Shown here one piece after another: positions 767 to 31,543 of a stretch of DNA of 39,165 bases. Each line of letters starts with the position of its first letter. Position 1 is the first letter of the stretch. The translations under genes and the position numbers were made by a program. The stretch is taken from positions 1 to 39,165 of the forward strand of contig JBDRWI010000016.1 of NCBI GenBank assembly GCA_039802265.1. The letters run 5' to 3'. The notes under the pieces are model-generated. The model ran no database searches. It was given only the letters and a program-made list of their open reading frames with translations, and was not told where the DNA came from. The stretch comes from a candidate division WOR-3 bacterium (GTDB taxonomy: Bacteria > Hydrothermota > Tepidihabitantia > SM23-42 > JAOAFX01).

Positions 767-3700
767 TTACTTCAATAAGATTATCTTCCGGGTATCAACA
801 AATTCTTCTGCGGTCATTCGGCAAAAATAAATCCCTGCCGCAAGTGCTTTACCCTTATCATCCCTGCCATCCCAGTGAATACTATAATATCCGGGTTCTT
901 TTTCTTCATCCACGAGTGTCCGTTCAACCTGCCCGAGACAATTATAAATTTTTATATACAGATTGGTTTTTTTGGGAATTGCATAATCAATGCGAATTAT
1001 TCCTTTTCCTGGATTAGGCATGGGTTGAGCCAGATGATAGACCATAGGTATCGAGGCTATCTCTTCAATCCCTACCGGTCGAATATCACCATTAATCAAG
1101 GTGAATGTCCGGTAGAACCAGCCACCCCAGTTGTTTGCACCATCCCTGCCCCGCACAAAGAGGGAACAGATGCGCACCGTATTTGGAGTATAGGTGAGTC
1201 TAATGTTACCTATTACCTCTTCTGCGACTTCATCCCAGGAACCATCCGAGGCCTGCATCCCTGCCTCGCCACTCGATGAATTTGGACTTTTAACAATATA
1301 ACTCGCAGCGCTAATCGTTGAAAATCCAGCATCGGAATCGCTAACCACTGCAGTAAATGTCAGGATGGTATCACTTGGCGAAACAAATTTGGGATTATTG
1401 GCAACGTTAATTGAGTTTGCGAGTATCTTCGGACCGATGTTGTCATTGCCGGGAATCGCAATTCGGAAATTGGCGGTTTGGGCAAAACCTTTTAAAGATG
1501 GATAGACATTTTTGTCATTGACCATCACCCGAACACGATATTTATTACCATTGGGCAAGGCACTTATATTCCATGAGTAAGGCGAGGTGAGATTGGTTCC
1601 GTAAGCAATTAAATTCCATATTGAACCACCGTCTGACGAATATTCAATCCAGGTGGTATCAACCTGGGTACCACCATAAGTAGTTGCACTCCAGGCAATG
1701 GTTACCGGGCTGGACGTATATACTTCACCCCCGCTGGGTGAGGATATTGTCACATCCGGGTGGTCATGTCCGATGAGCCAGATGAATTGATTATTAAGAA
1801 TAGCCGGAAGTTTTGTAGTATCCATCTGTGTGATAGAAAATCCATTATAAATTGTGCGCGTCTTATAACCACCCCAGATGCCATCACCAATTGTACCATG
1901 ATTGTTGCCCGATTCCCATTTCACGCCAACCCTGCCCCCATTTGTTGCATTCCAGCGCCAGACTACTGATGAGGCTCCGCCCGGATCCCAACCATTAGGT
2001 GGCGTGGGCACGACATCAAATGAATCACCCGCAGCACCAGTCCGATGGGGAGTATAGCTCACCGGGTTTTCAGCATACGGTCCACTTATCGGATCACCAC
2101 TCACACCATAAATATTAAAAGTCCCGGTACTTGTGAGATCTGCTTTGTATCTTGCCTGCAGGTAATTCTTGCACCAGGTGGTATCGTATGATTTATTGGA
2201 ACTATACTGCCAGGAGTGCCACAAAACTTCATGGGATGCGAATGCGATTCTTCCACCACGCTCTTCATATTTTTTGATTGTTTCCTGCTGGGCTTGTAGA
2301 AACGGTGGATATTCATCTTCAAAAACAACATATACTGCTTTGGCATTTTTCATCACTTCCCGGCTGGGTGTGTAACCATTATAATCTGAGGTTTGCCAGA
2401 AATTATAAGTCCAGCCTCCTTGTTCAACTGCTTTGTTGAATTTTTCTTTTAACTGAGGAAGTGCCATACCACCGCCTGTTCCGTCGTCTTTACCGTTGGC
2501 GAGGATAACCAAGATATCTTGGGAGATTACATTGCTACTTGATGTCTTAAATCTATAATGCTGCCCGCCATTGTTATCACGGACGATATGACCCCTGAAG
2601 TCCTTTGATTCAACATCATAATAATAAATGGTATTTGTGCTGAGCCCGGAGAGCAGGACACGATGGAATAAATGGTATAGTGTATCAATATTTACGACCA
2701 GATTGAGATTTGAAGGATTCGTCCCATAATAAACCTTTGAGGTAGAGTTTTCGTTTGTATTCCAGCAGATCTCCGCTGAATTACCTTTAATATTCTCACA
2801 ATGGACATCCGAGATCAGAAAATACCAGGCATCAACCGCCGCCCAGATTGTGGAGATATAGGTGGGATTATTATCTGTGTAAGAAACATATATCGTATCA
2901 CCCTGACAGACAGATAATTTACCATCACCATGGACTGGTCCACGGAAGAGCAGGGGCATTTCCCCCTTGAAGACATAGGAACTTTCGGCAAGTTCAACAC
3001 ACCGTAATGTCTCGGGTTGGGTTTCCAGATATTTACTCCTGAACACCACCACTACGGTATCACGGACGCCAGCGTTACCAAAATTTTTATCTTCCACCCT
3101 GACCCTGATGGTATCGACAAAAAAGTCGTTGGCGCGGTAAACAGTTTTATTTGTGGTTATAACGCCTGCTTCAGAGGTCCCGGAATATGCGATAACCAGA
3201 GCAAAGGGCTGTGGACCGCAGGGCACATTTCTCCCTTCAACCCGCACCAGCCAATTTCCTGCGGCTGGTGAATTAACCTTTACACATTCTTCAACATTGA
3301 GTGTATCCCGAACTGAAGGATTTGCCACGGATTGACCGCTTGAATATTGATTTCCCCGATAGTATGTTCCTGATGGATTCTGAACATACAAATCAAGGTC
3401 ATTTACAATCTGCTTCAAGACCGCAGGATTGCCAGGATAATCAGTCCAGACCAGAGTTATCTTTAAATTCGCTGCGCCCGAAGGGATATAAAAATAATAG
3501 TCTTTTCTTTCGCCGGTTAAAATGCCGATGGTATCATCAACAAGTAATAATTTGCGCGTATCACCAGCAAAATAGAGTGCCGAGTCAAGGTCAATTCGTC
3601 CCCAGCCGACGTTACTATCCGGCACAGTATACCCAGTGATATTCGGGTCAGCACAATTGATCAATATTGCCTTTATCACTGCGGCACTTATATATGACCA

Positions 3701-5353
3701 ACCGTTGGCTGGGATTCTTTTTCCGGACGGATACCACCCTTCTCTTAAATACTGCCTTATTAAAGCCCCCGCACCAGTTGCCCCTGGTGCCGCCATGCTT
3801 GTACCTGACATGGTTTGGTAACCTGAAGTTCCTGAACCTGCTGAATAAATACCATCAGCCGGTGCCAAAACTGTGGGTTTGATTCTTCCATCCTGAGTGG
3901 GACCACGGCTTGTTGATGAGAAATACGAACGACAGGCAGTGCTGTTTAAAGTGCCACCAACCGCTACGCAGCTTTTGGCACTGGCGGGAGAGGCTATCGT
4001 GCGTGCACCGGAACTACCTTGATTCCCCGCGGCATAAAAGAGGAGAAAATCTTTATGTGACCACATAAACTGGTCAACATTGTAAGCCATGATTGTATAA
4101 TATCCCATTGCATCTGCACCCCATGAATTTGTGCTCAAATATGCCCTTATCCCATGGCTCTGGTAATATTTATTGTATGGACGGATGTAGAGATTGTTGA
4201 GATCGGGGAATCTTTGGATAGTGTTATTTGAGTTATCACCACAATCATTGTGATAGATCCGTGCCATTTTGGCAATGCCATCATTAAAACTTGTGCCCAA
4301 TGTAGTATCGTTGCCCGCCGCAGTGCAGGCGGTATGAGTTCCATGCCAGGAAGCACCAGAACCATCACCAAACTGTATTGATGAAGGTGCCCCTGAATCA
4401 TAGGCAACAATTTTATTATGATTCGGATATACACCCCAGGTGGTTATGGCATCGCTACCCGCACGATGTTGATAATGCTCGGTGTTAATACCAGAATCAC
4501 AATGATTGATTATTTCACCCTGGCCCATTATGCCCATTGCCCAGACCCGGCGATAAGTATTATCAGAACCACTCGGAGCCGTAGAAAGCCAGCCGCATTG
4601 AATTACCCACTGGCATTGTTGATTAAATAACACTGGTTGAAGATAAGGTTCAATCCAGCAGATTTCTTTGATATGAGCGAGTTTATCCAGGTCTTTCTTC
4701 GCCACTTGGCATAAAATCATTTTATTTATTCCGTTATTAGATATCTCAAATTCACCTTTCGTGGTGATTGAATTTATCTGTTCAACGACGGAATTTATCT
4801 CAGCATCATTGAATAGCAGGATTACTACTTTGCCTTGATTACGAATGCAGTCGAAGAGTGGTGAAATTTTATATGCGGGCTGGTAAACACCCAACCAGTT
4901 CACTGAAGGGTTTGCGAGAATAACATCTTTTTGCCTTCTCTCTTTCAGGGAAATAACGAAACCGTAATTGGGGATATAAAAATGAACTTTTACACCCTGG
5001 GCTTCAAGCCAATCTTTTTCCGGACCATAAACAGGACCCGAAAATTGGACGATATAATAACCTGTTTCATCATCCCGATATTGGACTTTTAATTCTGATG
5101 GTAAGTCGGGCTCACCAGTTTTGCCCAGTAATCTGGTATCAAATGAAATGCCATTGGCAAAGGAAATCTTTGTCGCATCTCCATAGGTCTCGGGAATAAA
5201 TCGCGTCTTCCCAACATTTGAGAAGACTGGAGTAATACCTGCATGTGCCAGGTCGCATATTGCCGTAGAACTTTCATATTGCATCTCGCTTGCAAAAATT
5301 ACCCTGGCGAAGATTATCGCTAAGATTATTAAGGTCTTATTGAACTCGTGCAT
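767..5353 (-). CDS. Secreted S8 serine peptidase (Kp43-like) with FN3/Ig modules and a C-terminal FlgD-Ig/T9SS-type sorting domain
   Basis: Signal peptide; catalytic motifs HCDSG, HGTHTA, AAGN and SGTSMAAP; LKITLVWTD and NDLDL P-domain motifs; tail LAAGIYFCRM...RKIILLK; RBS AGGAGG. Confidence 0.92.
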   Translation of the reverse strand: MHEFNKTLIILAIIFARVIFASEMQYESSTAICDLAHAGITPVFSNVGKTRFIPETYGDATKISFANGISFDTRLLGKTGEPDLPSELKVQYRDDETGYYIVQFSGPVYGPEKDWLEAQGVKVHFYIPNYGFVISLKERRQKDVILANPSVNWLGVYQPAYKISPLFDCIRNQGKVVILLFNDAEINSVVEQINSITTKGEFEISNNGINKMILCQVAKKDLDKLAHIKEICWIEPYLQPVLFNQQCQWVIQCGWLSTAPSGSDNTYRRVWAMGIMGQGEIINHCDSGINTEHYQHRAGSDAITTWGVYPNHNKIVAYDSGAPSSIQFGDGSGASWHGTHTACTAAGNDTTLGTSFNDGIAKMARIYHNDCGDNSNNTIQRFPDLNNLYIRPYNKYYQSHGIRAYLSTNSWGADAMGYYTIMAYNVDQFMWSHKDFLLFYAAGNQGSSGARTIASPASAKSCVAVGGTLNSTACRSYFSSTSRGPTQDGRIKPTVLAPADGIYSAGSGTSGYQTMSGTSMAAPGATGAGALIRQYLREGWYPSGKRIPANGWSYISAAVIKAILINCADPNITGYTVPDSNVGWGRIDLDSALYFAGDTRKLLLVDDTIGILTGERKDYYFYIPSGAANLKITLVWTDYPGNPAVLKQIVNDLDLYVQNPSGTYYRGNQYSSGQSVANPSVRDTLNVEECVKVNSPAAGNWLVRVEGRNVPCGPQPFALVIAYSGTSEAGVITTNKTVYRANDFFVDTIRVRVEDKNFGNAGVRDTVVVVFRSKYLETQPETLRCVELAESSYVFKGEMPLLFRGPVHGDGKLSVCQGDTIYVSYTDNNPTYISTIWAAVDAWYFLISDVHCENIKGNSAEICWNTNENSTSKVYYGTNPSNLNLVVNIDTLYHLFHRVLLSGLSTNTIYYYDVESKDFRGHIVRDNNGGQHYRFKTSSSNVISQDILVILANGKDDGTGGGMALPQLKEKFNKAVEQGGWTYNFWQTSDYNGYTPSREVMKNAKAVYVVFEDEYPPFLQAQQETIKKYEERGGRIAFASHEVLWHSWQYSSNKSYDTTWCKNYLQARYKADLTSTGTFNIYGVSGDPISGPYAENPVSYTPHRTGAAGDSFDVVPTPPNGWDPGGASSVVWRWNATNGGRVGVKWESGNNHGTIGDGIWGGYKTRTIYNGFSITQMDTTKLPAILNNQFIWLIGHDHPDVTISSPSGGEVYTSSPVTIAWSATTYGGTQVDTTWIEYSSDGGSIWNLIAYGTNLTSPYSWNISALPNGNKYRVRVMVNDKNVYPSLKGFAQTANFRIAIPGNDNIGPKILANSINVANNPKFVSPSDTILTFTAVVSDSDAGFSTISAASYIVKSPNSSSGEAGMQASDGSWDEVAEEVIGNIRLTYTPNTVRICSLFVRGRDGANNWGGWFYRTFTLINGDIRPVGIEEIASIPMVYHLAQPMPNPGKGIIRIDYAIPKKTNLYIKIYNCLGQVERTLVDEEKEPGYYSIHWDGRDDKGKALAAGIYFCRMTAEEFVDTRKIILLK

Positions 5354-5376: not shown

Positions 5377-8300
5377 TTATCGGATGACAATAAGTTTATA
5401 AACTTTTGATTTTTCTTGGTTGTTTGTTTCCACTTTTGCAAAATAAATACCGCTGGCAAGTTTTGGCAGAGTAAATTGGAGGATGCCACTTCCATTAACA
5501 TCATTCCATCTATCTTCGGCAATCCTTCGTCCACTTACATCGTAGATAGATACCGTAATATCGCCATTATAGTTATTATAACTGAGATTTAATTTCCCAT
5601 TGGTAACATTGGGGAAAATATTGAATTGCTGGGCAATACTAATGTCCTTTTTTGTTTCATCTACATTTACCAGCCAGTTCCAGTAGCGATTATATGCAGT
5701 ATCCACATTTGCCTGGAGGTCGGCTAAATCGGTGCCGCCAGATAATGCAAACGCCACCGAATACACCCCTCCTGGGGCAAGGGTAAATGGGCCAACCGAG
5801 TTGCATGTTGACCAGTCCTTGGGGGTGGTTCCTGATGAATTCTGGATCGTCCGATTCATAAATTTAAACTGAAAACTATCGGGTAAGCCGCCGTACGGAG
5901 CGATATAAGTTTCATTTTTGATGATGACTAAATTCCGGGCAGGTGTTGAACGGGGCGGGTCAAGCACGGCAACTCCCATATATGGAGATGAAGAATTGTA
6001 ATACATATAGGTCAAATTCCGTGAAGTCTCGGAGTTTCCATAATTACTTGAATAAGTGCCAATATCCCAGTCCACAAATAATGCTGCATACATATCGCTC
6101 AAGGTAGTGCTACCAGCATTTTTCAGGATAAATCTCATTATCACAAAATCATTGGCTGTAGAATCGTTCCAAACCCAGGAATACTGTTCACATATCAATC
6201 CTTTCTTCTGCGGATGGCCAGAATCACTATAACAGGCAGTAGCATATTCATCAAAACCCCAGGGACCCGGTTCATACATCCGACATCTTCCAGGCGGAAA
6301 ACTCATAGTCTTCCAATCTTGATCATCAATATTATTTGTCTCTACATACTGGTCAACACAGTAAGTCTTGCTATTACCTGCAGCAAATGAGCCATAACTC
6401 AGACGATTCGGTCCCATAGTCCCGGGATATTTAAACCCAACTCCCCCAACCTGTTCTGAGCTCATAAATCCGAGTGCTCCGTAGCGGGTGACAGTAAAGC
6501 GGAAATTCCCACAATCGTGCGTGACATAATCAAGTCCGGGGACTCCTACTGTAAATTTGAAACTCTGTGACCAAGAATAACCACCATCCACAGTGATATA
6601 AAGGGTAAAAGTTATTTCGGTCCCGTCCGGGGTATTTACGGCCGCGGTCATTTTGAATGGGTCGGCGCTATTATTTGCCTGCCCACCAGGAGGAATGGTT
6701 CCAAAAGACGAAAGTGAATCGCTAATCGTTACATAAGAACCATTAGCAGTCGCACGCAACTTGGCATTGACATTTCCCGCGTTTATATTACCATCGTTGA
6801 CCAAGGTTATGGTAAGTTGCGCATATTCGCCCTGTTCCCATATTCCATTGTTATTCTGGTCGGCTAAATTTTTATTCAAAATATAAACAAATGGTTCATT
6901 TCCTGGTTTGATACGCACCCGCATCTCTGGATCACCAAAAAGGGTCAATTCCAGTCCACTATAATGCCAGGGCTCCCCGCTCCAGATCAGGTTGCGGAAA
7001 TGATTTAATGATAAAGCATGGGCAGCGCCAATATTAAAAGTATCATGATGGAGCATTGAATAGAAACAGGTATCCAGTCGCTCAGAAGGTCCCAGATTAG
7101 GTGGATCTGCCCAGCCATACCTTGTATTCATTATTGTTGCCACACAACCGTAATTATTGCGGGTGATCAATGCCTCGGCAAAACAGTCGTCGAATTCGTC
7201 AAAATCTCCGGAATAACAGGCGATAGAATTTAGAACAGTGGGCATTGTATTATTAAGATAATTAATATCTGAGATTACCAAAACTGGTGAACCGGATTCA
7301 TTATAGGTGCCATTCTGGTCCCCATGGGCAGCGATATGCACTAAGTTGTAGTTTTCATTTATCGCGTTTCTTGTTGCCGGAGAATACTGGTCTTCAAGTC
7401 TTGTGATCGTCCAGTTAGTGGGAAACATACTGGCAATTTCGTTATTAACGACCCGCCCATGATATTGCGCCATTGAAAATAGCATCACCGAGGGTAATAA
7501 TAATTTTTGATAGGTTAAAGAGAATGTACTGTAGGTATACACCGAATCCTTGCGCAAGAAATAATTTATCTCGGTGGTATTATCAACCGGCGGTCTGCCC
7601 ACATATATATCACAATAACCATCAACACCATCGGTCAGTTCACCATAAAGATGGTCACCATCACCATCCCAGGTTCCATCTAAATCAGCATAATAGTAAT
7701 CCGAGGCAATATAGTAGGTTGAATCACCATAATTGTTAAGGATATCCCTTTCCGGAACGATATTATTATCACCGCCCAGTACCGCGAAGATAAGCCCTTG
7801 ATTGGTGAAATAATCTTTAAGAAAGTTTCTTATCTTTTCCGGATTGTCATATCCGGAATAATTTGTATATATCCAATCGGTTGTCACCACCTGCGCCTGA
7901 TAACCGGCAGCAATCTTCCAGTTTACAAGTTTTTGCCATGCAGATTGAAGGCTGGAATTTGTTATTATTACATAGTTACAGGCCTGTGCCGGCTCGGGTT
8001 TGGTTGGTGGGGCAAACCTCTCAACATCGGACCGATTGACCACCAAAGCCTTAACATTCTGTCCAAAGATCTTTTTTTGTTTTTCGGTGAGGGCGATTAA
8101 TTGATGCACACCTTCTTGGTATTTTATCTTTAATGTAATTTCTGTAGTCAGAATGAGTTTCTTCGCGGCTGGGATATATTTTATTGGGTTCAATAAAATT
8201 CCGGCAATTCTATATCCACTCATTAAACCTGAGGAGAAGAAAACAAAATCTTTTTCTGGATAGGGAAGCGGTGAATTGTAGACTTCAGGAATTGGCTCGA

Positions 8301-8637
8301 CAAATGGAATTTCTTTTTTCGTTGAAATCGGTCTTGGGGACTGGGTGGGACAGATATGATAGGTTCCAGGCAGTTCCTTGGTGCTTTTAGATAAGACTTC
8401 AACGCCTATTATCTCGGCATCGGCAGGTATTACAAAATGGGCGATGATAAATGGAATTAAGGGTTTTCCTACTTCGGTACCGGCGTCAGCCCCACCTTTT
8501 ATATTTATTACATCATAACCATGGTATTTGGTGAAACTGATATCCGTTGGCGAAAAGTTAAAGGTATGGTGAATCGTTCCTGATTGAAGGCAAAAAGGCA
8601 AGAAGATCACCGATAGTAAAATAGCTTGGTATTTCAT
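5377..8637 (-). CDS. C25 family (gingipain-like) cysteine peptidase with propeptide and T9SS-type sorting domain
   Basis: Propeptide GKPLIP; IRNFLK, VLGGD, ASDYYYADLDG, VGR, catalytic His (AHG) and Cys (SIACYSG), LFGDP; tail LASGIYF...KLIVIR; RBS GGGAGG. Confidence 0.92.
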   Translation of the reverse strand: MKYQAILLSVIFLPFCLQSGTIHHTFNFSPTDISFTKYHGYDVINIKGGADAGTEVGKPLIPFIIAHFVIPADAEIIGVEVLSKSTKELPGTYHICPTQSPRPISTKKEIPFVEPIPEVYNSPLPYPEKDFVFFSSGLMSGYRIAGILLNPIKYIPAAKKLILTTEITLKIKYQEGVHQLIALTEKQKKIFGQNVKALVVNRSDVERFAPPTKPEPAQACNYVIITNSSLQSAWQKLVNWKIAAGYQAQVVTTDWIYTNYSGYDNPEKIRNFLKDYFTNQGLIFAVLGGDNNIVPERDILNNYGDSTYYIASDYYYADLDGTWDGDGDHLYGELTDGVDGYCDIYVGRPPVDNTTEINYFLRKDSVYTYSTFSLTYQKLLLPSVMLFSMAQYHGRVVNNEIASMFPTNWTITRLEDQYSPATRNAINENYNLVHIAAHGDQNGTYNESGSPVLVISDINYLNNTMPTVLNSIACYSGDFDEFDDCFAEALITRNNYGCVATIMNTRYGWADPPNLGPSERLDTCFYSMLHHDTFNIGAAHALSLNHFRNLIWSGEPWHYSGLELTLFGDPEMRVRIKPGNEPFVYILNKNLADQNNNGIWEQGEYAQLTITLVNDGNINAGNVNAKLRATANGSYVTISDSLSSFGTIPPGGQANNSADPFKMTAAVNTPDGTEITFTLYITVDGGYSWSQSFKFTVGVPGLDYVTHDCGNFRFTVTRYGALGFMSSEQVGGVGFKYPGTMGPNRLSYGSFAAGNSKTYCVDQYVETNNIDDQDWKTMSFPPGRCRMYEPGPWGFDEYATACYSDSGHPQKKGLICEQYSWVWNDSTANDFVIMRFILKNAGSTTLSDMYAALFVDWDIGTYSSNYGNSETSRNLTYMYYNSSSPYMGVAVLDPPRSTPARNLVIIKNETYIAPYGGLPDSFQFKFMNRTIQNSSGTTPKDWSTCNSVGPFTLAPGGVYSVAFALSGGTDLADLQANVDTAYNRYWNWLVNVDETKKDISIAQQFNIFPNVTNGKLNLSYNNYNGDITVSIYDVSGRRIAEDRWNDVNGSGILQFTLPKLASGIYFAKVETNNQEKSKVYKLIVIR

Positions 8638-8682: not shown

Positions 8683-10653
8683 TTATTTAATGATCACTAA
8701 TCTCTTCACTGTTGCACCGTCTGGGGTTTGGATATAAATAAAGTAAATTCCCTCGGGTAGGGTTATTTTATTATTGAAAAGGTATCTTCCGCTCGGTCTT
8801 GTTTCTCTTATTATTTCTGTTAGCAATCTTCCTGAGGCATCGTATATCAACGCTCTGATATCCCCTGAATTTTTAAGATTTCCCCAAAGGATAAAATCGC
8901 CTCTTGAAGGATTAGGAGAAATATGAACATCGGGATCCGCCATCTTTATCGGTCGGTGTTCAAGGATACCAAATGTCTCATCAGGGAAAGACAACCTGGG
9001 ATCGGCTTCATTGTTGCTTGGATAATAACGCATCCAAACGATCGCCGGGAACCATTGATTGTGAGTGTTATTCCAGAACGTGGTCATATCCATCTGATAC
9101 CAGGTATATGGCCGCCCATAATCAGAGGATGTTGTTAGGGTGTCGATAATACTTGTCCCCACCCTTTCAAAATTATTGGGATTGGTGTTATATAAATTGC
9201 TAAGGGCTATGGAATCATTCAGACACCGTAATGCAAAAGGAATGTAGTAAGTGTTGCCATTGTGGTCTTTGTAATAGGCAAGATGGTAATGATCAGGACC
9301 AGCATTATTTCCAGCATATTCTCCATCACAGGTGATGACGGGCGTTTTGGTCATAAGTGCATCACCATCAACCAGTTTTGAAATAAAACCCATACCATTT
9401 GCCATTCGGAATAATATCCGGACATTATAATCCGTTGCGGTCCAGGGATAGCCGAAAGCGACAACAACGCTTGCCTGATTATAGTTGTGCGAAGCGGCTA
9501 CATCAATATTATCAATATCAGACGTATGTACATATTCAGTTTCAGTCCAGCTGCCTGGCAAGCCCGAGATACTTTCCAGAATTACTAATGAATTGTTCGA
9601 TTTTCGAGCAACAAAGACAAATTTATCAGTTGATTGAGATGCCGCGCCCTGGGCACCTTTGGGTATCGCCCAGATGTTGGTTGTCCATGGCGATGTATAA
9701 ACAGTCGACCAGGTCTCTCCAAAATCCGTTGACTGAGCAATCACCACATTTCCCGTGGTATAATTGTGATAAATGCAACAAAGGCGATGGTCGGACCAGA
9801 CATGTTCTACGCTGAGATGGGGCTGGTTACATTCGTCACTCGATGTTTCCACACTAAAGATGTTGGTTGCCGAAGGATCATTTAAATCAGTAAAACGTCG
9901 AATCCAGATATTGCCGGACATTGATGAACTACTAATTGCATACGATTCATACAGATACTGATTAATGGGGTCAATTGCTACATCAAAAACATGGCGGTCG
10001 GCAGTCGCAGAACCATGTGAGTGCCATCTTTCCCAATTATTCCCACAGTCAGTTGAGCGCCAGAGAAATATCGTATCCTCACCCGTCCCCGAAGTTTGAT
10101 TGCTTGCGGCAACAAAGATATAATTATTAAAAGTGGCGACCGAAGGGGTAACATGGTCCAGAACACTCAAGTCTACAAGACCTAATGACCAACCGGTTCC
10201 CTGGTTATCGTCATCCCGCTTAGAATAGTCAAATTTAACTGGATGTATCTGGGTTTCTTCATAATGGATCTTTGGTAAATTTTTCTCTCTTGTAATATAT
10301 TGCAGAAAATTTTCTGCTTCATTCATAAGGTAAACCAATTCTGCATAATTCCAATCTGTTGGTTGAGATTTAAATTCTTGCCAGAGTTTTTGGAGTCTTA
10401 TTCTATATCCAACATATGCATTCTCCTCGGCGGAAAAAACATCGGGAGGTAATTGAGGTAAAAGATTATTTAGTCTATCTTCAAGATTTAAGATTATTGT
10501 TTGTTTATCAGAACCTGACATATCTTTCCATTTCTGCGCCAGCGCCGCTTTTTCAGCGGTCCAGCCATTAGGGACAAATATAATTTTATCATCGGTCTCC
10601 AACGCAAATAATAGTGTTGCTAATATTGTTACTACCCATATAATATTTTTCAT
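8683..10653 (-). CDS. Secreted BNR/Asp-box beta-propeller protein with T9SS-type sorting domain
   Basis: Signal peptide; Asp-boxes RSTDCGNNW and QSTDFGETW; tail SPNPSRG...YDASGR...LPEGIYF...KRLVIIK; RBS AAGGAG. Confidence 0.8.
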   Translation of the reverse strand: MKNIIWVVTILATLLFALETDDKIIFVPNGWTAEKAALAQKWKDMSGSDKQTIILNLEDRLNNLLPQLPPDVFSAEENAYVGYRIRLQKLWQEFKSQPTDWNYAELVYLMNEAENFLQYITREKNLPKIHYEETQIHPVKFDYSKRDDDNQGTGWSLGLVDLSVLDHVTPSVATFNNYIFVAASNQTSGTGEDTIFLWRSTDCGNNWERWHSHGSATADRHVFDVAIDPINQYLYESYAISSSSMSGNIWIRRFTDLNDPSATNIFSVETSSDECNQPHLSVEHVWSDHRLCCIYHNYTTGNVVIAQSTDFGETWSTVYTSPWTTNIWAIPKGAQGAASQSTDKFVFVARKSNNSLVILESISGLPGSWTETEYVHTSDIDNIDVAASHNYNQASVVVAFGYPWTATDYNVRILFRMANGMGFISKLVDGDALMTKTPVITCDGEYAGNNAGPDHYHLAYYKDHNGNTYYIPFALRCLNDSIALSNLYNTNPNNFERVGTSIIDTLTTSSDYGRPYTWYQMDMTTFWNNTHNQWFPAIVWMRYYPSNNEADPRLSFPDETFGILEHRPIKMADPDVHISPNPSRGDFILWGNLKNSGDIRALIYDASGRLLTEIIRETRPSGRYLFNNKITLPEGIYFIYIQTPDGATVKRLVIIK

Positions 10654-10837
10654 ATTTTTTTCTCCTTTCTTTTTAAAAGCAATTTGGACCTTTAGTTAAT
10701 TTTCAAAAAAAATTATCACCCCCTTTTCACTTACTTTAATTGCCAGTAATATTATATAAATAAACTGCGTATAGAATCTTGCCCCTGGGCTTAAAAACTT
10801 AAGGATTTTCAATGATTTTTGCTGAAATATAGTGTAC

Positions 10838-10866
10838 TTGACAAAATGATATTTTTTTGGTATTAT
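10838..10866 (+). promoter_or_regulatory. Sigma70-type promoter of the HTH-TPR-BTAD regulator
   Basis: TTGACA-17 nt-TATTAT with an extended -10 TG. Confidence 0.6.
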
Positions 10867-10882
10867 TTTCCATAAAATTGCA

Positions 10883-13144
10883 ATGAAGAAAAACTTTGAG
10901 GTAATCCTGAATGCCCTTGATGAACTTCAGGAAAAAAAAGATTTCAAATTCATCTCAAGCAAGTACAACATTCATCACACCACCCTGTGGAGATGGACAA
11001 AAAAATTCTATAAAAAAGATTTTTTTTATCGACGGCCATGGAAAGATATTTCTGAATTAATTGAAGAAAGAATTGTTAGTATAAAAGAAGCCAAACCGGA
11101 TATCACACTCGCCCAAGCCCAAAGTGAATTAAACAATCATGGTATTAAAATTTCAACCAAGATAATTTATAATATCTGGAAGGATTATGGACTGATAAGG
11201 CAGAATCCCCGAACCCCCTTTTCTTTTTTTGCTCCAGAAACAGCCGAGGCAAAATATAATCTAACATATGTCCAGATATTACTCAAAAATGGGCATTCTT
11301 CAGACAATTTAAAGAAATGTGCCGAGATAATCAATCGGTTGCCGGCATTTCCTGCTGATTATAAGGATATCCTCAGAGAAATACCCGATGAGTTGCTGAC
11401 AACGAAAAGAAAACTGGATAAATTGATTACGCAATTTTTGAAAATTCCCCTTCAGGATTTCTATGAACATATTAAAAATTTAAGAATCCAACTGGAAAGG
11501 GAAGGATTGTTTTATTCTGCGATAAAAGCTGTACTTTTAGAACTGGCAGCTTTGACTCGTTTGAGATATCCTCGGGAAATTTTGAATCTTCTCTCTCATC
11601 TTAAAAAAATTAAAGGCAATTTAAGAGATCCCGTGCTTGATTTCCAGTTGAAATTTTTTGAAGCCTCTGCTTATTGTGAGATTTTACAGATTGGCGAAGC
11701 GCAGAAGATAGCAAAGGAGATGCGGCAGATAATGGCAAAAAAGAAGTACCCATTCTATTATGAAACTTATGGTGAATTGATGACCTTCATGAGCAATTAT
11801 CGCCACGCTACTCGATATTTTATAAAAACATTGGAATGGACCACGAATAGAATAGACCAAAATCGATTATATTACAAAATTTCTATATGTCTCACTTTAA
11901 ATGGTCGATACCGGGAGGCGCTAAAATATCTTAGTAAAGCAAAGATTGATGAGAAAAACAAATATTTTGCCCATTACCTGATAGCACGTGCCCTGATAAA
12001 TTTTGGTTTGGGACGGATAGAAGAAAGTCTGGCAAAATGTGAACAGAGTTTGAGACAGGCAGAGAAAGAGCAGCTCATTGGAACATTATATTCGACGATA
12101 TCTTGCTATGCCACAATTCACTGTGCGCTGGGCGAAAAAACCCATGCCGAACGCATCATTAAAAATTATCTACCAATCCTTGCAAAATACGGGCAGAAAA
12201 GAGAAATAGAAGTTTTAAGCCATTTAATTTCAATTGATAAAGAATCGCCAGGCTCCGAACTGCCGACATTACAATTGATACATTTGCTCAAACGTGCACG
12301 GCAAAGTTTAAAAATAAAAGATTATCGCCAGTTATTTATCTATGCGCAAAGATACGGCCTGGTAGGTTTTCTCCAGCGTTGTTTATTCTTTATACCCGAA
12401 TTGGTTCTCAATGTTCTTAATCATGGCAAGAAGCCCGATTTACCTCAGGCTTTACTTCAAATGCCGGTTTTTAATCCTGAAATGCCCAGTTACCGAATAA
12501 ATTTCTTGGGCGAAGTCGTTATCTACAAGAATCAAACCTATCTAAAGGTAAATCTCACACCCAAAGAGAAGGCATTTTTTATTTTTTTGAGTCAAAAGAT
12601 ACCCGAACCCGAAAGGGCAATAGCAATAGATGAAATATTCAATTACTTCTGGCCCAAGAAAGATAAATTAACAGGACGTTTAGCCCGTTTTCTAACCGAT
12701 TTTAAAAAGAAAATAAAATTGCCCAAACATCTCTTGGTAGCAAGGGACGGCCACTTAATAAATAATGGATTTTATATCACAAATGATTACGGTGAATTTA
12801 TCTCAATCATTACCCGTGCCAAGGCCTTGAACCGGGCTAAAGAATGGATCTTTGCCCGCAATGAATACCTCCGGGCATTTAAATTATGGCGGGGTGAGCC
12901 ACTCAAAAAGAATTTTGACAACTGGTCGGTGGATATGAGATTTAGAATTTTAACCCAAATTGAAGATGAAGCGGTTTCATTTGCGAAGATTTGTCTGGAA
13001 CATGACGACAAATACGGCGCATGCCGAATTTTACAAAAGATTCTAAGGATTATTCCTGATGCGGAAGAGGCAAAACGCCTTTTAGATTTATCTAAAAAAT
13101 CAAATGAAAAACCCGAGGCACCCAAAGGGCACCCCGGGATCTGA
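10883..13144 (+). CDS. Putative transcriptional regulator: N-terminal transposase-type HTH, central TPRs, C-terminal SARP-like wHTH/BTAD
   Basis: KYNIHHTTLWRW...GIKISTKIIYNIWKDYGL; TPR-like GRYREALKYL and GRIEESLAKC; YRINFLG...LTPKEKAFF...FWP...AFKLWRGEP...DNW. Confidence 0.75.
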   Translation: MKKNFEVILNALDELQEKKDFKFISSKYNIHHTTLWRWTKKFYKKDFFYRRPWKDISELIEERIVSIKEAKPDITLAQAQSELNNHGIKISTKIIYNIWKDYGLIRQNPRTPFSFFAPETAEAKYNLTYVQILLKNGHSSDNLKKCAEIINRLPAFPADYKDILREIPDELLTTKRKLDKLITQFLKIPLQDFYEHIKNLRIQLEREGLFYSAIKAVLLELAALTRLRYPREILNLLSHLKKIKGNLRDPVLDFQLKFFEASAYCEILQIGEAQKIAKEMRQIMAKKKYPFYYETYGELMTFMSNYRHATRYFIKTLEWTTNRIDQNRLYYKISICLTLNGRYREALKYLSKAKIDEKNKYFAHYLIARALINFGLGRIEESLAKCEQSLRQAEKEQLIGTLYSTISCYATIHCALGEKTHAERIIKNYLPILAKYGQKREIEVLSHLISIDKESPGSELPTLQLIHLLKRARQSLKIKDYRQLFIYAQRYGLVGFLQRCLFFIPELVLNVLNHGKKPDLPQALLQMPVFNPEMPSYRINFLGEVVIYKNQTYLKVNLTPKEKAFFIFLSQKIPEPERAIAIDEIFNYFWPKKDKLTGRLARFLTDFKKKIKLPKHLLVARDGHLINNGFYITNDYGEFISIITRAKALNRAKEWIFARNEYLRAFKLWRGEPLKKNFDNWSVDMRFRILTQIEDEAVSFAKICLEHDDKYGACRILQKILRIIPDAEEAKRLLDLSKKSNEKPEAPKGHPGI
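13107..13138 (-). terminator. Intrinsic terminator of the pseudo-S8/MshEN operon, overlapping the regulator's 3' end
   Basis: Minus strand CCCGGGGTGCCC-TTT-GGGTGCCTCGGG-TTTTT. The G-U wobble pairs form only on the minus-strand RNA. Confidence 0.75.
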
Positions 13145-13167
13145 AAGGGGGATTCTCTAAAGGTATT

Positions 13168-13386
13168 TTAAAGGCGATTTGTCTTTAAATCTCTTTGCAG
13201 ACTCAATGCCCGATTCAAATCTGCCTCGGTGATATAACCCAGCTCAACCATTATTTCACCCAATGGTTTACCCTTTCCGCTGTATTTATTCATCTGCACC
13301 CACCGTGCCTCATTTACCTGTTCATGGGTAATAACCCCCAATGTGATTAAAATTTCACCGATAAATGGATGCGCACCCATTTTCAC
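13168..13386 (-). CDS. Stand-alone MshEN-like (T2SSE_N, c-di-GMP-binding type) protein
   Basis: Tandem motifs IGEILITLGVITHEQVNEARWVQ and LGEIMVELGYITEADLNRALSLQ. GTGA overlap with the upstream stop; alternative ATG at 13380. Confidence 0.8.
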   Translation of the reverse strand: MKMGAHPFIGEILITLGVITHEQVNEARWVQMNKYSGKGKPLGEIMVELGYITEADLNRALSLQRDLKTNRL

Positions 13387-16142
13387 TCAATCAACACTGC
13401 TTTCTTTACACAAATTACGCCTTTGTAATTCAGATGGACAAAATAGACACCGGAAGGCAGCCTGCGACCGTGATTATCCAAACCATTCCAGATAACTTCG
13501 AAAGCCTCACCATTTTTCTTAATTTCGTGATTAAATTTTCTCACCACCCTTCCTGCCACATCATAGATTTTCAACGAGATATCATTTTTAGTTCTGTTAT
13601 AATTGTAATTTTCATCCGGGATGTATAATGTAATCTTAAGGGATTTATTAAAGATATTCGATGCCAGTCTCAATTCGGGTCGCACAGGATTAAAAATAAA
13701 AGATTGATTTTCTTCAATACCAATCTGACTATTGGGTGCCCAGGTTGTGAATCGCAAGGCAAAACTATCGCTAATAGGCGGAACACCACAAGGAAAATTT
13801 GGCACCAATTTTACCCGGTAATATACTCCTGATGTGCCAGTACTATTTTCAATACCAACCTGATAAGAGGCCTGACCGAAAGAGTCGGTATGATAGAATC
13901 GGTAATAGCAGTATATATCACCATCACCGGTGGGTGTCGGGTAATATGCTGGGTCGTGTAGGACAATCTGAAAACTATAGTGGGTATCTGGCAGAGTATA
14001 TAACGGCATTTTAAACCACTCTACGATAAACCGATGACTTGGCTGGTCGTAATAGTAATAAACATCTGCCGGATGATTAGGATAGTTGGGCCAAAGGAAA
14101 CCGTGATTCAACGCTGCAATAAAATTATTCGGTAAGTTGGGAGTGGGTATGCCATTTATAAGACCATATGGAACTGCGACGGAATCCATTACGATAAATC
14201 CATTGTCATGCACCATAATTCGGTTGTAATTTACGCCATAAAATTTGAATGTAAACGGTAGGTGAACACATTTAGGGTCTTCATTTTGGGGATCCAACGA
14301 TATTCCCTGATGCTCATTCTGAGTAGTATCAATCGCAAACCACTCAAATACCGGCCTCAATTCTGGATATGGACCAGTCGACCAGTAGCAATAATAGCGT
14401 CCATCATTGGGTACTGGGTTTCCCACTGGAAATTCAATAACTTTTGTCCAGGATGTCTCGGCACATGTGATAAAAAACACAAATCGTGCAGTATCGCCAC
14501 CTAAATAATTAGGTGAAACATATAGTGCAAACCGATCACTGGTATTCTGCACCGAATCACCCACATTGATATTACCAAAATTGGCAGTAGAATCTAAAAT
14601 CATTATCCAGGGATCGCCCGTCCGTAATTTGGCTGAGACATTCGTGGCATCAAATACACCGTTGTTTTTTAGATAACAAACAATCTGGGCGTTTTCTCCA
14701 GGGTCAAGTTTCTCGTTTCCATTATTGTCACCCACTACACGGGGTTTTGTGATGATTAGATTCGGTTGGTTGGGTGATGGTGAATTCTGTAAAGCGCGCC
14801 AGATATTTAATATTCCCCAGCCCCACTTATTGTTGGGTATATTGCCCGCCCAATATGCTCCGTCACAATTGAAACAAAGGAGATGATATAATTGTTGGGG
14901 TGTGTAATTTGGATTTCTTTCAAGCAAAAGAGCTGCTGCACCAACGACATGTGACAAGGGCGGAACATTCCCTAATTTATATCCACCATTCTTCCACGCT
15001 GAATACACATTTCCCCATGGTGCGAGGAGGTCCGGTTTTAAAAAGTTCCAGGTGGGATAAAACCAGAAAGAAGGGTCATTTATCGGCGGTATATTCGGAG
15101 ATGGTCCAACATTTTGATTAGCAATATTGAGACTATCAACGTAGCCAACGCCAATTACTATTGGATAACTCGCTGGTGCTGAAAAAGTTCCAGATATTGT
15201 AGGAATTCCTACATCACAGACTGATAATATACCCAGATCTTTCATGAAAGACACTATATTCCACCAGTGTATATTATTTTGTGTTCCAACGTATGCAAAC
15301 TCAATATCAAGCAATCTTATATCAATCCCCATTTGTTTAAGATCCGCCATATACTGTAAGCACTCATCAGTTGATGAATAAGTATAACTACCCGATGTAT
15401 CAATACATTTCGTCGGAATAAACTTTGCATTATAGGCAATACCGATATCATTACCAGAAGGTCCTGGACCATCGCCCCCGCAGATTATGCCAGTTAAGAA
15501 TGTACCCCAATAATCATCGTAAGGAACTGATTGCCCATTCACTGCATCATACCAGTAAGGCGCCAGCCATTTGCCTGCAAGTGCTGGATGTTGAACCATT
15601 ACGCCACTGCCAACAACTCCGATAATGACATCTCTTCCACTGTATCCTGCCGCCCAGCAAGAATCTGCCTGTATCCTTCTTAAATTCCAACCAATATCCA
15701 CATTATCTATATCCGAGTTATCCAATCGCACATTACTTTCCTCAATTGTTTGAGGTTCAAAGGAACATTTCATTTTGACATTCGAAGAGATAAACCAGAT
15801 ATCATTCCGTTTGGCTAATTCTTTGATCACATCCTTTGTCGCCTTCAAATGGAGACCATTAAAAACCCAGAATTGCCGAACAATTTCCGCCTTACTTTCG
15901 GGCAATGATTTCAGGTAATCCACCAAGGCACTCTGTGAGTTAAAAGCAATAACCTTTGCCTGATTACATTTTTCCTGCGGGGTTAAATTGTCGTTCTCAC
16001 TAAATGGATATTCCGTATTCATATGAACGATCACAAAAATCTTTTCATCCGGTCTTGCTCTATCCATAACATCCTTCAGGTCTGAGGTAATCTTCCCCGG
16101 CACCTGGGGTAACAGGAAAAATAATATTAATAAATAGTGCAT
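13383..16142 (-). CDS. S8 (bacillopeptidase F-like) homologue lacking catalytic residues, with prodomain, Ig module and T9SS-type tail
   Basis: S8 scaffold motifs WNLRRIQADSCW, GYSGRDV, APASYP, KPDLLAP, HVVGAAALL and NNKWGWG are present. D/H/S motifs are replaced by VVGSG, WGTF and GNVPPLSH. RBS AAGGAGG. Confidence 0.85.
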   Translation of the reverse strand: MHYLLILFFLLPQVPGKITSDLKDVMDRARPDEKIFVIVHMNTEYPFSENDNLTPQEKCNQAKVIAFNSQSALVDYLKSLPESKAEIVRQFWVFNGLHLKATKDVIKELAKRNDIWFISSNVKMKCSFEPQTIEESNVRLDNSDIDNVDIGWNLRRIQADSCWAAGYSGRDVIIGVVGSGVMVQHPALAGKWLAPYWYDAVNGQSVPYDDYWGTFLTGIICGGDGPGPSGNDIGIAYNAKFIPTKCIDTSGSYTYSSTDECLQYMADLKQMGIDIRLLDIEFAYVGTQNNIHWWNIVSFMKDLGILSVCDVGIPTISGTFSAPASYPIVIGVGYVDSLNIANQNVGPSPNIPPINDPSFWFYPTWNFLKPDLLAPWGNVYSAWKNGGYKLGNVPPLSHVVGAAALLLERNPNYTPQQLYHLLCFNCDGAYWAGNIPNNKWGWGILNIWRALQNSPSPNQPNLIITKPRVVGDNNGNEKLDPGENAQIVCYLKNNGVFDATNVSAKLRTGDPWIMILDSTANFGNINVGDSVQNTSDRFALYVSPNYLGGDTARFVFFITCAETSWTKVIEFPVGNPVPNDGRYYCYWSTGPYPELRPVFEWFAIDTTQNEHQGISLDPQNEDPKCVHLPFTFKFYGVNYNRIMVHDNGFIVMDSVAVPYGLINGIPTPNLPNNFIAALNHGFLWPNYPNHPADVYYYYDQPSHRFIVEWFKMPLYTLPDTHYSFQIVLHDPAYYPTPTGDGDIYCYYRFYHTDSFGQASYQVGIENSTGTSGVYYRVKLVPNFPCGVPPISDSFALRFTTWAPNSQIGIEENQSFIFNPVRPELRLASNIFNKSLKITLYIPDENYNYNRTKNDISLKIYDVAGRVVRKFNHEIKKNGEAFEVIWNGLDNHGRRLPSGVYFVHLNYKGVICVKKAVLIE

Positions 16143-16352
16143 AAAACCTCCTTTAGCAGAAATATTTTATCATAAAATTGTCATATATTTGATCAAAATG
16201 TCCTAAAAAACATATGAAATTGCGTGGGTTTTTTTCTTTTTTTACTGACTTTGGGAAAAAATAAAATTTTTATACCATTTTTTCTTAAAAATGCAATAAC
16301 AAATGGTTTTCCAATGAAGGGTACCTATCATAAAGACTTATGGTAGGAAGGT

Positions 16353-17873
16353 TTAGTTAACTACAATTAACTTGCCAAATTTTATACCTTTCTTTGCTGT
16401 TTCAATCTTATAGAAATAAATCCCTCCAGGTAAGTTATTCAGTCTTTTGCCGATCTTTCTGCCCAAAGGATCATACAATGTAAGTATACCATCGACTCGG
16501 TCTTCATATCGGCAATCATTTGCTAAAATCGTCGGTATAAAGAAACCAGCAGGATGATCTACATCTTTATCCTCAGTTATACCTACCAATATTTCTTTAA
16601 ATCCTTCCTGGATCTGCCAGCCAGGATTATTTAATCCACGCCATTCATAGGCACCAACATCCCAGTAACTTCCATAAGGCCTGGATAAAAGATTAAAATC
16701 ATGCTCCGGTGCGCCATAAGATTGTGTCCCGGTGTTAAGCAGTGTAGCATTAGATTTTGGGTAAAGATTGATAACGCCCGGTGTTGGGACTGGATTTATA
16801 AATTCCTGGCTCGGATGATTACCCAATGTTGAACCTGTGACCTGGGATTGACCATAATGCCGATTATAGGCTACATAACCCGGACCAATACCATCTGGAG
16901 CCTGAATTGCACTCGCGGTTATGGTATCCTGATAACAGGCATTATTGATGCAGACCATTTCTCCGGTCGCAATATTCCAGTCATCAAGCCTGAGGCAGGT
17001 TGTATTGCAGTGATATATTGTATTATTACGGATATATAAATCATTCATCCCCCAGCCGCTGTAGTTTCTAACATTTATTCCATAATCACAACTGAATATG
17101 ACATTATTGTCAATATTGGTCTGACCAACCGCAAAGATTCCCTCAGGTGTATTCCAGATTGCATTTCTGCGTACAATATTGTTATCACTTGCTGAACTCT
17201 GGTCAGTCTTATACAAAACAATCCCTGCCTCATCACAGTTATATACAACATTATCCTGAATGATATTCAGATATGTGCCACGCTTGAATTGTATCCCTTT
17301 ATGGGGATGGCAATCGTGTATCCAGTTCAGTTCTACAAGACAATGATGCACCGGAGACAAGCCATCATGATTTCCGATATAAAGACCTTCGCCCACATCT
17401 GAGATATCATGGATATGGCAGTGCCGGATTGTCAGGTAAGTAAAAGATTCTCCTGCAGGATTGGCACTTATCCCGACACCAGTGAGATCATGGATATGTA
17501 AGTTTTCCATTAAAATATGGTCGCTCGTGGTTCTGAATTTTATCCCATCAATCCCTGAACCTGCATAAGAATTTGTGATTTCAATTCCTCTAAGTTCAAC
17601 ATAATGACAATTATAGATATCAATAACATTATCATAGTTGACGCCATTGATAATCACACCGCTGGAATAAGGTTGTATCACAATCCAGTCATTTTCGGTT
17701 CCATATCGGTCTGCAATATTCCAGTTCATAGCATATGTTCCAGGCATTATCAGTAGTGTATCACCAGCCTGCAATTGATTGGTATATGACTGTATTTCAC
17801 CCGGAGTATCTGCAATATAGGTTGTGGCAAAGACAAAGCAGAGTAGAAAACACAGAAAAATTATCCGTACCAT
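16353..17873 (-). CDS. Secreted right-handed beta-helix (pectin lyase-like) protein with a short T9SS-type tail
   Basis: LQAGDTLLIMPGTY, repeated xNxIHD/xNxIY turns, GEGLYIG, DVGAYE; tail YDPLGR...LPGGIYF...KLIVVN. Confidence 0.85.
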   Translation of the reverse strand: MVRIIFLCFLLCFVFATTYIADTPGEIQSYTNQLQAGDTLLIMPGTYAMNWNIADRYGTENDWIVIQPYSSGVIINGVNYDNVIDIYNCHYVELRGIEITNSYAGSGIDGIKFRTTSDHILMENLHIHDLTGVGISANPAGESFTYLTIRHCHIHDISDVGEGLYIGNHDGLSPVHHCLVELNWIHDCHPHKGIQFKRGTYLNIIQDNVVYNCDEAGIVLYKTDQSSASDNNIVRRNAIWNTPEGIFAVGQTNIDNNVIFSCDYGINVRNYSGWGMNDLYIRNNTIYHCNTTCLRLDDWNIATGEMVCINNACYQDTITASAIQAPDGIGPGYVAYNRHYGQSQVTGSTLGNHPSQEFINPVPTPGVINLYPKSNATLLNTGTQSYGAPEHDFNLLSRPYGSYWDVGAYEWRGLNNPGWQIQEGFKEILVGITEDKDVDHPAGFFIPTILANDCRYEDRVDGILTLYDPLGRKIGKRLNNLPGGIYFYKIETAKKGIKFGKLIVVN

Positions 17874-17895
17874 TCTTCCTCCTTAATTCTTTTTT

Positions 17896-17924
17896 ATTTT
17901 AACTCAACACCGTATCATTGTCAA
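17896..17924 (-). promoter_or_regulatory. Sigma70-type promoter of the beta-helix gene
   Basis: TTGACA-17 nt-TAAAAT on the minus strand, then RBS AAGGAGG. Confidence 0.65.
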
Positions 17925-18019
17925 GCCTTAATTTTTTATGAATTTATTTAATTATTCTCCAGTGCTGTCACCAATTAAAATTTCCACACAAATATTGACA
18001 TTACCCAACTTTATCATTC

Positions 18020-31258: not shown

Positions 31259-31375
31259 AAAAAATAAGCTCGCTTTACTCGCTAACCTGTAGATCAACAC
31301 GCGGGTGGTCATCTACCCAATAGATCTCAGAAATTTGGTTAGTTCGTTTCAAAGAATTTTCCATTGAATATTTTT

Positions 31376-31406
31376 TTGTATAGGAATTTGAAAAATTCCT
31401 ATACAA
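31376..31406. promoter_or_regulatory. Perfect 14-bp inverted repeat, operator-like
   Basis: TTGTATAGGAATTT-gaa-AAATTCCTATACAA. Confidence 0.5.
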
Positions 31407-31441
31407 TGGTAATGAAATTTTTCATTATAGTTAAAAAAACC

Positions 31442-31543
31442 ACAAGATATTCAGGGGAGGATGATATGAAAATGGTCTCCGCACAAAGAGACGGTTTGCT
31501 ATATAGCGGGGGTTTTCAGGGGGTATCCCCCTGAATATCTTGT
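31442..31543. other. 102-bp element bounded by 16-bp inverted repeats (candidate structured RNA or MITE-like unit)
   Basis: ACAAGATATTCAGGGG at 31442-31457 and CCCCTGAATATCTTGT at 31528-31543; competing hairpin TTCAGGGGG-tat-CCCCCTGAA at 31515-31535. Confidence 0.5.

Follow-up and report, generated by a model that had tools for sequence, protein, structure and literature searches.

A family of candidate regulators joining an IS481-type DNA-binding head to a C-terminal SARP-like module beside secreted-protein genes in WOR-3 bacteria

The window analysed here, a stretch of 39,165 nt from a candidate division WOR-3 bacterium (contig JBDRWI010000016.1 of assembly GCA_039802265.1), contains an open reading frame (ORF) of 753 aa (10883..13144, + strand) that belongs to an apparently undescribed protein family with two DNA-binding modules, a head related to the N-termini of IS481 transposases and a tail resembling the SARP activators, joined by a long helical solenoid. 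As an initial annotation made from the letters alone had proposed, the family is tied to secreted 'cargo' proteins carrying a type IX secretion system (T9SS)-type C-terminal domain (CTD), and likely activates their genes. We observe that bases at the predicted start site of the regulator gene co-vary with residues of the head in collinear order, and that this is replicated in held-out copies of the family. Taken together, the sequences make it probable that this is a locally acting, two-handed regulator whose tail would activate the cargo and whose head would repress its own gene.

Head residues co-vary with bases at the regulator start site

The regulator and its cargo have back-to-back promoters, with about 82 bp between the regulator -35 and the cargo -10, and this region was compared among 67 copies of a first set (70 less three near-duplicates, one of the 67 having a short flank only). 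The regulator promoter is a near-consensus sigma70 promoter (10838..10866, + strand, with the -35 at 10838-43, a 17 bp spacer and the -10 at 10861-66) followed by a leader that is very short and lacks a ribosome-binding site. Across the family the -35 is perfect in 60 of the 67 copies, the leaders are mostly 5-23 bases long from the -10, and a Shine-Dalgarno sequence is present in none of the 67. Over the predicted start site lies a family-specific TTTCC element (10867..10882, + strand), which follows the regulator -10 in 52/67 copies as compared with 10/518 promoter-like sites, and which is the candidate operator of the head.

A screen of 330 DNA traits against 1138 residue traits gave six top associations that reduce to three pairs: R77 with position +1, P52 with +8, and R598 with a box in the cargo promoter (described below). 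At the start site, G at +1 accompanies R77, with 6.2 phylogenetically independent pairs in the same direction and none opposite in the first set (5.2 and 0 in the held-out set), and T or C at +8 accompanies H or P at residue 52, an association that survives removal of leaderless starts (6/6 independent pairs). Over positions +1 to +16 the top residue lies inside the head at 8/15 positions, as against 14/109 elsewhere, and the best head residue along this interval runs from the second helix-turn-helix (HTH2) through the linker to the first (HTH1; Spearman -0.85), the order in which a bipartite domain with the geometry of Tc3 and the paired domains would be expected to leave its footprint.

Tests on held-out copies were pre-specified, and used 50 sequences (63 found, minus three duplicates, three with short flanks and seven with weak promoter calls). 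R77 is present in all 17 copies with G at +1 and in 2 of the 33 with another base (p 2e-11), and the pairs H52/T+8, K93/T+4, N54/G+7 and R33/C+16 were also confirmed; under control for the tree the head pairs fall almost all one way (5.2/0, 1.9/0, 2.2/0, 3.3/0 and 5.7/1). Because the start-site bases co-vary with head residues in this collinear order, the data point to the head being tied to the start site of its own gene and not to the cargo promoter. Binding of the head to the element is likely, and it would lie across the start site; since the presumed site overlies the start point of a promoter close to consensus, the head would act as a repressor, and this negative feedback would hold a strong promoter at low output.

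A SARP-type box in the cargo promoter

The cargo -10 noted in the initial annotation, TATAAT at 10751..10756 (- strand), is confirmed, as is the lack of a usable -35, with no match 17-18 bp upstream; in 57/67 copies the cargo -35 has at most 3/6 consensus bases. Above the -10 is a box (10766..10770, - strand) that reads ACGCA at 9 bp in the window, the family form being ACAYA at 8 bp. With the -10 picked without regard to the box, ACAYA lies exactly 8 bp above it in 55/117 cargo promoters, as compared with 0-5 at each of the other spacings between 4 and 13 and 7/3789 TATAAT sites in the genome background. The arrangement resembles that of the SARP activators, for the B site of AfsR is likewise 8 bp above a -10 whose promoter has a suboptimal -35, and helix 3 enters the major groove (PMC11301090).

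Of 741 positions, the one that co-varies best with base 4 of the box (C or T) is residue 598, part of the SARP module's predicted recognition helix (p 3e-10; next position 7e-6): C occurs with Arg598 in 27/29 cases and T without it in 21/23, and the association holds in the held-out copies (p 0.002). By analogy with AfsR it is likely that the C-terminal module binds this box, 8 bp above the cargo -10, and activates, and it would do so by recruiting RNA polymerase where there is no -35. When the 655 operon-first genes of the genome were ranked with a position weight matrix (PWM) for this promoter, built without sites of the same genome, the cargo promoters of the three paralogues ranked 1, 3 and 49. 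The 85 CTD genes among the 655 show no enrichment (p 0.06-0.13, direction negative), and because the matrix gives no enrichment at other CTD genes the action of the regulator looks local.

Domain structure of the regulator

The AlphaFold model (pLDDT 94.8, pTM 0.91, with a 150-row alignment as input) contains, in order, three-helix bundles at residues 5-43 and 58-101, a helical solenoid at 121-513, a winged HTH at 536-634 and five helices at 635-741. The initial annotation had described a tandem transposase-type HTH with no DDE domain behind it, tetratricopeptide repeats (TPRs), and a winged HTH-BTAD-like end with no Walker A motif, and all of these elements are recovered, with single-sequence Pfam matches that are weak (HTH_32, E 0.011; TPR_12, E 4e-6, with 14/18 homologues also matching TPR_12; BTAD, E 0.07).

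In the head (10883..11197, + strand; HTH1 at residues 5-43, a linker, and HTH2 at 58-101), residues 16-107 of the window copy match positions 11-110 of the 284 in the NCBIfam IS481 model (NF033577) at E 2e-6; scored against the cut-off of 224 bits, the match reaches 24 bits and spans model positions 11-115 only. All 67 family heads match IS481 (best E 4e-19), 66/67 match IS630 and 65/67 IS3. The IS481 match is confined to the N-terminus of that model, and no DDE or RNase H part was found in the regulator, the structure model being all helix without strands over residues 121-513 and helical until the winged HTH. The sole non-family match of the head profile in the genome is to an intact IS481-type transposase on contig C31, collinear across HTH1, the linker and HTH2, and an hhalign comparison of the head with the N-terminus of the genome's own IS481-type transposase gives 96%. 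Fold matches to the whole head are all weak, and are led by Tc3 (Z 7.0) and TnsB (6.8); Foldseek matches, also weak, include PAX8, PAX5, PAX6, TnsB and SETMAR at E 0.07-0.13 and extend through Mos1 and Mu to E 0.65. A protein search with the head profile, of a kind that long proteins crowd, returned 77 matches that by length, Pfam domains and names, and not by single inspection, are apparently family members or fragments of them. The C31 transposase itself (G000:C31:20590-21801; L086) has a recognisable right end and no clear left inverted repeat, and a fragment of it is present on contig C74.

The tail consists of an OmpR-type winged HTH (12488..12784, + strand; residues 536-634, with a predicted recognition helix at 596-610) and a shortened BTAD (12785..13105, + strand; residues 635-741), a combination that is weak by sequence and clear by predicted fold. 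The BTAD match reaches 13.9 bits against a Pfam cut-off of 22.1, over positions 2-93 of 146, and is below E 0.001 in only one of the 18 homologues; a PDB sequence search with the SARP part returned only CadC (E 0.017). By fold, the top match to the tail is AfsR (Z 16.6, root mean square deviation 3.3, 210 residues aligned), followed by EmbR (Z 15.1 over 536-745), and these two outrank all other matches; Foldseek also reports a SARP match (TMt 0.67), and the winged HTH matches the DNA-binding domains of CssR and PhoP (Z about 9). A Walker A-like pattern occurs in only 4/150 family sequences, at unrelated positions as expected by chance, and the model contains no P-loop fold. Residues 375-741 are homologous (97%, E 7e-11) to a head-less protein of the same genome, a MalT-like TPR-winged HTH-BTAD regulator without an ATPase (G000:C3:19514-21655; L087), which is likely a sister architecture.

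Association with secreted cargo

In the window the cargo is a probable operon on the - strand, in which a 656 aa protein with weak BNR-type repeats (8683..10653) is followed by a C25 peptidase (5377..8637) and an S8 subtilase (767..5353), all three with a CTD. Of 81 rows in the first set, 77 have a divergent ORF upstream of the regulator, three a same-strand ORF (two small spurious ORFs and one recR) and one none, and by hand count 43/47 complete divergent genes carry a CTD. All 57 held-out copies for which this was scored are divergent, 42/47 complete partners have a T9SS-type CTD, and in four of the five without one the next gene carries it. The baseline in the window's genome is 199/1759 genes (~11%) ending in a CTD of T9SS/FlgD type, and 28/334 divergent slots (8%), scored at E 0.001 where the partners were scored at E 0.01. 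The suggestion in the initial annotation that the family is dedicated to protease loci is not supported, since in a hand count of 60 first partner genes, out of about 70, beta-propeller types number 28 and proteases of the S8 or C25 kind only 11. In two exceptional loci a regulator faces an AIM24 gene (L025:622-1299) or follows recR (L076:1441-2028), and both keep a box-like site, possibly reflecting loss of cargo.

The genome encodes PorV and SprA homologues above cut-off as putative components of a T9SS; PorP was not found in it, in a search whose control was blank too. Term searches of two WOR-3 papers, supplements aside, gave no mention of secretion, T9SS, a peptidase or a regulator. Several other features of these loci were noted. 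An IS91-family transposase (L001:7023-8243) adjoins the cargo gene of the C83 paralogue. Convergent with the regulator, and directly after a second S8 gene (13383-16142), is a small ORF (13168-13386, - strand) with an MshEN-type cyclic di-GMP-binding motif (NF053729, E 4e-8, 33 bits against a cut-off of 38, over a 51 aa part). The window also contains a hairpin-rich repeat of ~175 bp (31367-31543), similar to a miniature inverted-repeat transposable element, with 37 further blastn matches in the genome, many of them 95-99% identical, and multiple copies in genomes G125, G117 and G121 as well; Rfam has no match anywhere in the window, this repeat included.

The helical middle, the intergenic motif and alternative readings

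The middle of the protein (11243..12421, + strand; residues 121-513) is an all-helical TPR-type solenoid that is presumed to be a sensor or a spacer, and is most variable at residues 271-390. We consider it probable that it binds some ligand; it would then gate the SARP module in response to a cytoplasmic compound, probably one formed as the cargo's target is broken down, and that this compound is specifically a peptide is doubtful. A peptide sensor of the RRNPP type, in which protease operons are turned on by a secreted peptide that re-enters the cell and binds the TPRs, was close to the proposal in the initial annotation. It draws on the order of HTH then TPRs, on alignments of the solenoid to NprR (Z 11.9), phage Rap (11.7) and PlcR (11.0), on the two proteases in the window operon, and on the control of the protease SpeB by RopB (PMC4794775). 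The alignments, however, tie with that to MalT domain III (11.1) and are all below the Z of 13 that helical repeats reach by chance, and proteases are a minor class of cargo in the family. The markers of RRNPP proteins given in the same source are a conserved Asn in the groove and an adjacent peptide gene. No Asn in the stretch 251-460 is conserved above 43%, the Asn conserved in 96% of the family (N151) lying before it; any small ORF with a ribosome site was found in only 11 of 58 downstream flanks, with none in common, and on the upstream side there are only promoters between the regulator and the cargo gene. Peptide sensing of this kind thus seems improbable. A further reading is that no signal is sensed at all, the solenoid being a spacer or oligomerisation arm in a constitutive, autorepressed activator that fixes cargo output at a set point. 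The TPR stretch is indeed the least conserved part (column identity 0.34-0.38, versus 0.6-0.68 in the BTAD) with few conserved polar residues, and neither a partner sensor nor a peptide gene recurs beside it. Such a device is unlikely, for every full-length copy retains a stretch of some 400 residues whose length hardly varies, and as many as 11 diverged paralogues in one genome, whose cargo differs, fit different inputs better. Related TPR-SARP and MalT proteins are ligand-gated, which also counts against it.

Between the two promoters there is a degenerate, AT-cored 21 bp motif (10796..10816, no strand assigned) with an information content of 8.65 versus 6.05 in shuffled sequence. It exceeds the 95th percentile of the null in 39/67 copies under leave-one-out scoring, and its position is fixed, ending 20-23 bp from the -35 in 46/67. 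This motif raises the question of whether the head is instead an upstream anchor near -62 of the cargo promoter, tethering a single SARP module without any autorepression; its length suits a bipartite domain, only one SARP half-site is seen in the cargo promoter, and the motif profile bears a faint likeness to that of the start-site element (r 0.34; 0.17 for the next best). The start-site element nevertheless co-varies strongly with the head where the 21 bp motif does not (18% of its top 50 pairs fall in the head, versus a background of 14%), and we regard the anchor as having little chance of being correct, with use of both sites conceivable. The last alternative is a non-autonomous, still-mobile IS481 derivative that activates whatever gene it lands beside, as the type of head, the many copies, the tandem units, the patchy range and a 9.2 kb stretch shared with another genus (see below) might suggest. 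It is largely refuted, and we give it very little credence: paralogues are only about 30-36% identical, the proportion of CTD partners in both sets is far from the 8% expected, and no right end shared among 70 downstream flanks was seen by eye, in an inspection without a per-locus search for direct repeats. We also considered the middle motif or the cargo box as a relic of an IS481 left end and rejected this, the middle motif being unlike the ends at 30 IS loci (best scores -1 to 9). In several genomes with the family (L006, L009, L011, L016, L044 and L077) the regulator stop is directly followed by short tandem repeats with units of 7-9 bp.

Several observations weigh against the two-handed, self-repressing activator that we favour. 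It offers no explanation for the 21 bp motif, and only one strong SARP half-site is seen, with weak conservation one turn upstream, whereas AfsR has a direct repeat. Among the co-variation results, K37/G+13 failed in the held-out copies (p 0.33), no held-out independent-pairs test reaches a median p < 0.05, and the R598/box pair is weak under tree control (3.6 same and 0.1 opposite, p 0.125; held-out 2.4/1.2). Selection also lets pairs that we consider spurious (K440, E641) through the independent-pairs test, the held-out copies are related to those of the first set (31-97% identity) and so are not independent of it, and positions past +9 are often within the coding region. Finally, the window copy is itself a poor example: its box has the divergent sequence and spacing given above, G598, R599, R602 and D606 are off consensus, P52 occurs with a shortened element, and its cargo promoter ranks 485/655 by the PWM. 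It is a long-branch variant, whose specificity may have changed or whose function may be weakening.

Family range and evolution

A homologue search returned 18 proteins, from WOR-3 wherever the taxon is given, and a profile search returned 192 clusters (50% identity, E <= 1e-30), whose members are labelled 'transposase' or 'helix-turn-helix protein' in databases. The window's genome has four copies, and three genomes searched with the tail have 10, 11 and 7. In a survey of the phylum that scored only four candidates per genome, 50/271 genomes have a match at E <= 1e-50 (hand count), and the order of the window's genome, represented by 48 genomes, supplies 38 of these; two genomes with other phylum labels have one copy each, on short contigs that are possibly misbinned. 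Tandem cargo-regulator units are present at L047, L055, L057 and L081.

Comparison of pairs within genomes and between genomes (96 and 909 pairs) shows that the BTADs are more alike within a genome (0.71 vs 0.56 for protein, 0.53 vs 0.47 for synonymous codons), with the head and solenoid showing little difference (0.32 vs 0.31). Likeness of within-genome paralogues in the BTAD only, together with the downstream flanks that some of them have in common, suggests that the 3' end has undergone gene conversion or has been tuned to the polymerase of the host. Isolated C-terminal fragments of regulators (L042:2323-2487, L081:3942-4127, L083:1378-1545, L084:852-1301 and L080:5409-5948) may be what recombination at the conserved 3' end has left behind. 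One 9.3 kb contig from another genus (G119:C81; L178) is over its whole length 97% identical to window positions 8725-17925, which include the regulator locus, whereas core genes of the two genomes are 64-76% identical; this reflects either recent transfer of a cargo island or a binning error. The family likely arose by fusion of an IS481-type N-terminus to a MalT-like TPR-winged HTH-BTAD protein, and likely spread by duplication of cargo-plus-regulator units.

Relationship to known systems

The family would work like a SARP, but it misses strict membership of the SARP, IS481, RRNPP and MalT groups. In common with AfsR and EmbR it has, by predicted fold, an OmpR-type winged HTH directly followed by a BTAD. 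It differs from them in that the module is C-terminal (536-741 of 753), the BTAD has five helices and not seven, there is no ATPase, a second DNA-binding domain stands at the N-terminus, one strong half-site is seen in place of the direct repeat, and the hosts are WOR-3 and not actinomycetes. The nearest Atlas clusters (scores about 0.9) are of the MalT-like TPR-winged HTH-BTAD type, annotated as 'BTAD domain-containing putative transcriptional regulator', which share the TPR solenoid and C-terminal SARP part but lack an IS481-type head; MalT and other STAND proteins differ in possessing a P-loop NTPase. RRNPP proteins such as NprR, PlcR, RopB and Rap likewise place a TPR superhelix after an HTH, and RopB controls a secreted protease, but the family has two HTHs and a SARP tail, and neither an Asn-lined groove nor a peptide gene was found.

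The two HTHs and basic linker of the head are as in the N-termini of IS481, IS630 and IS3 transposases and in the paired-type domains of Tc3, TnsB, PAX and SETMAR, and the head of Sleeping Beauty is itself termed a paired domain (PMC11754664). Unlike IS481-type transposases, the family has no catalytic domain, and its putative site is at the start of its own gene, with no match to an IS end found. Eukaryotes provide well-known cases, such as PAX and SETMAR, in which the DNA-binding head of a transposase was domesticated as a host transcription factor. In bacteria, a transposon protein has become a transcription factor in TldR, a TnpB-derived repressor (10.1101/2023.11.30.569447). TldR is RNA-guided and derived from the accessory nuclease; the family described here instead fuses the transposase's own protein DNA-binding head to a putative activator. 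No bacterial fusion of a transposase head to a SARP was found in the literature searched, which was mostly without subscription journals and excluded supplements.

These comparisons allow a broader, tentative reading, to which we give somewhat less than even chances, that a transposase paired-type domain was domesticated into a large family of host factors much as in PAX, with each gene a self-contained feedback switch. The head would repress itself, the tail would activate the facing secreted-protein gene and the middle would read a variable signal, and cargo-plus-switch units would have duplicated, moved between genera and, within a genome, become alike at the ends that contact the polymerase. 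If this is true, the family would yield a readable residue-to-base code for the IS481-type domain. The family already provides base-level predictions for the reading of DNA by IS481-type heads, and for a C-terminal SARP module that would act through one half-site only. If ligands are found, an autorepressor-activator encoded by one gene, with its 82 bp bidirectional promoter, is a possible compact synthetic switch, and the family offers a first handle on the control of the CTD-tagged secreted proteins that make up about one gene in nine in the barely cultured WOR-3 cells.

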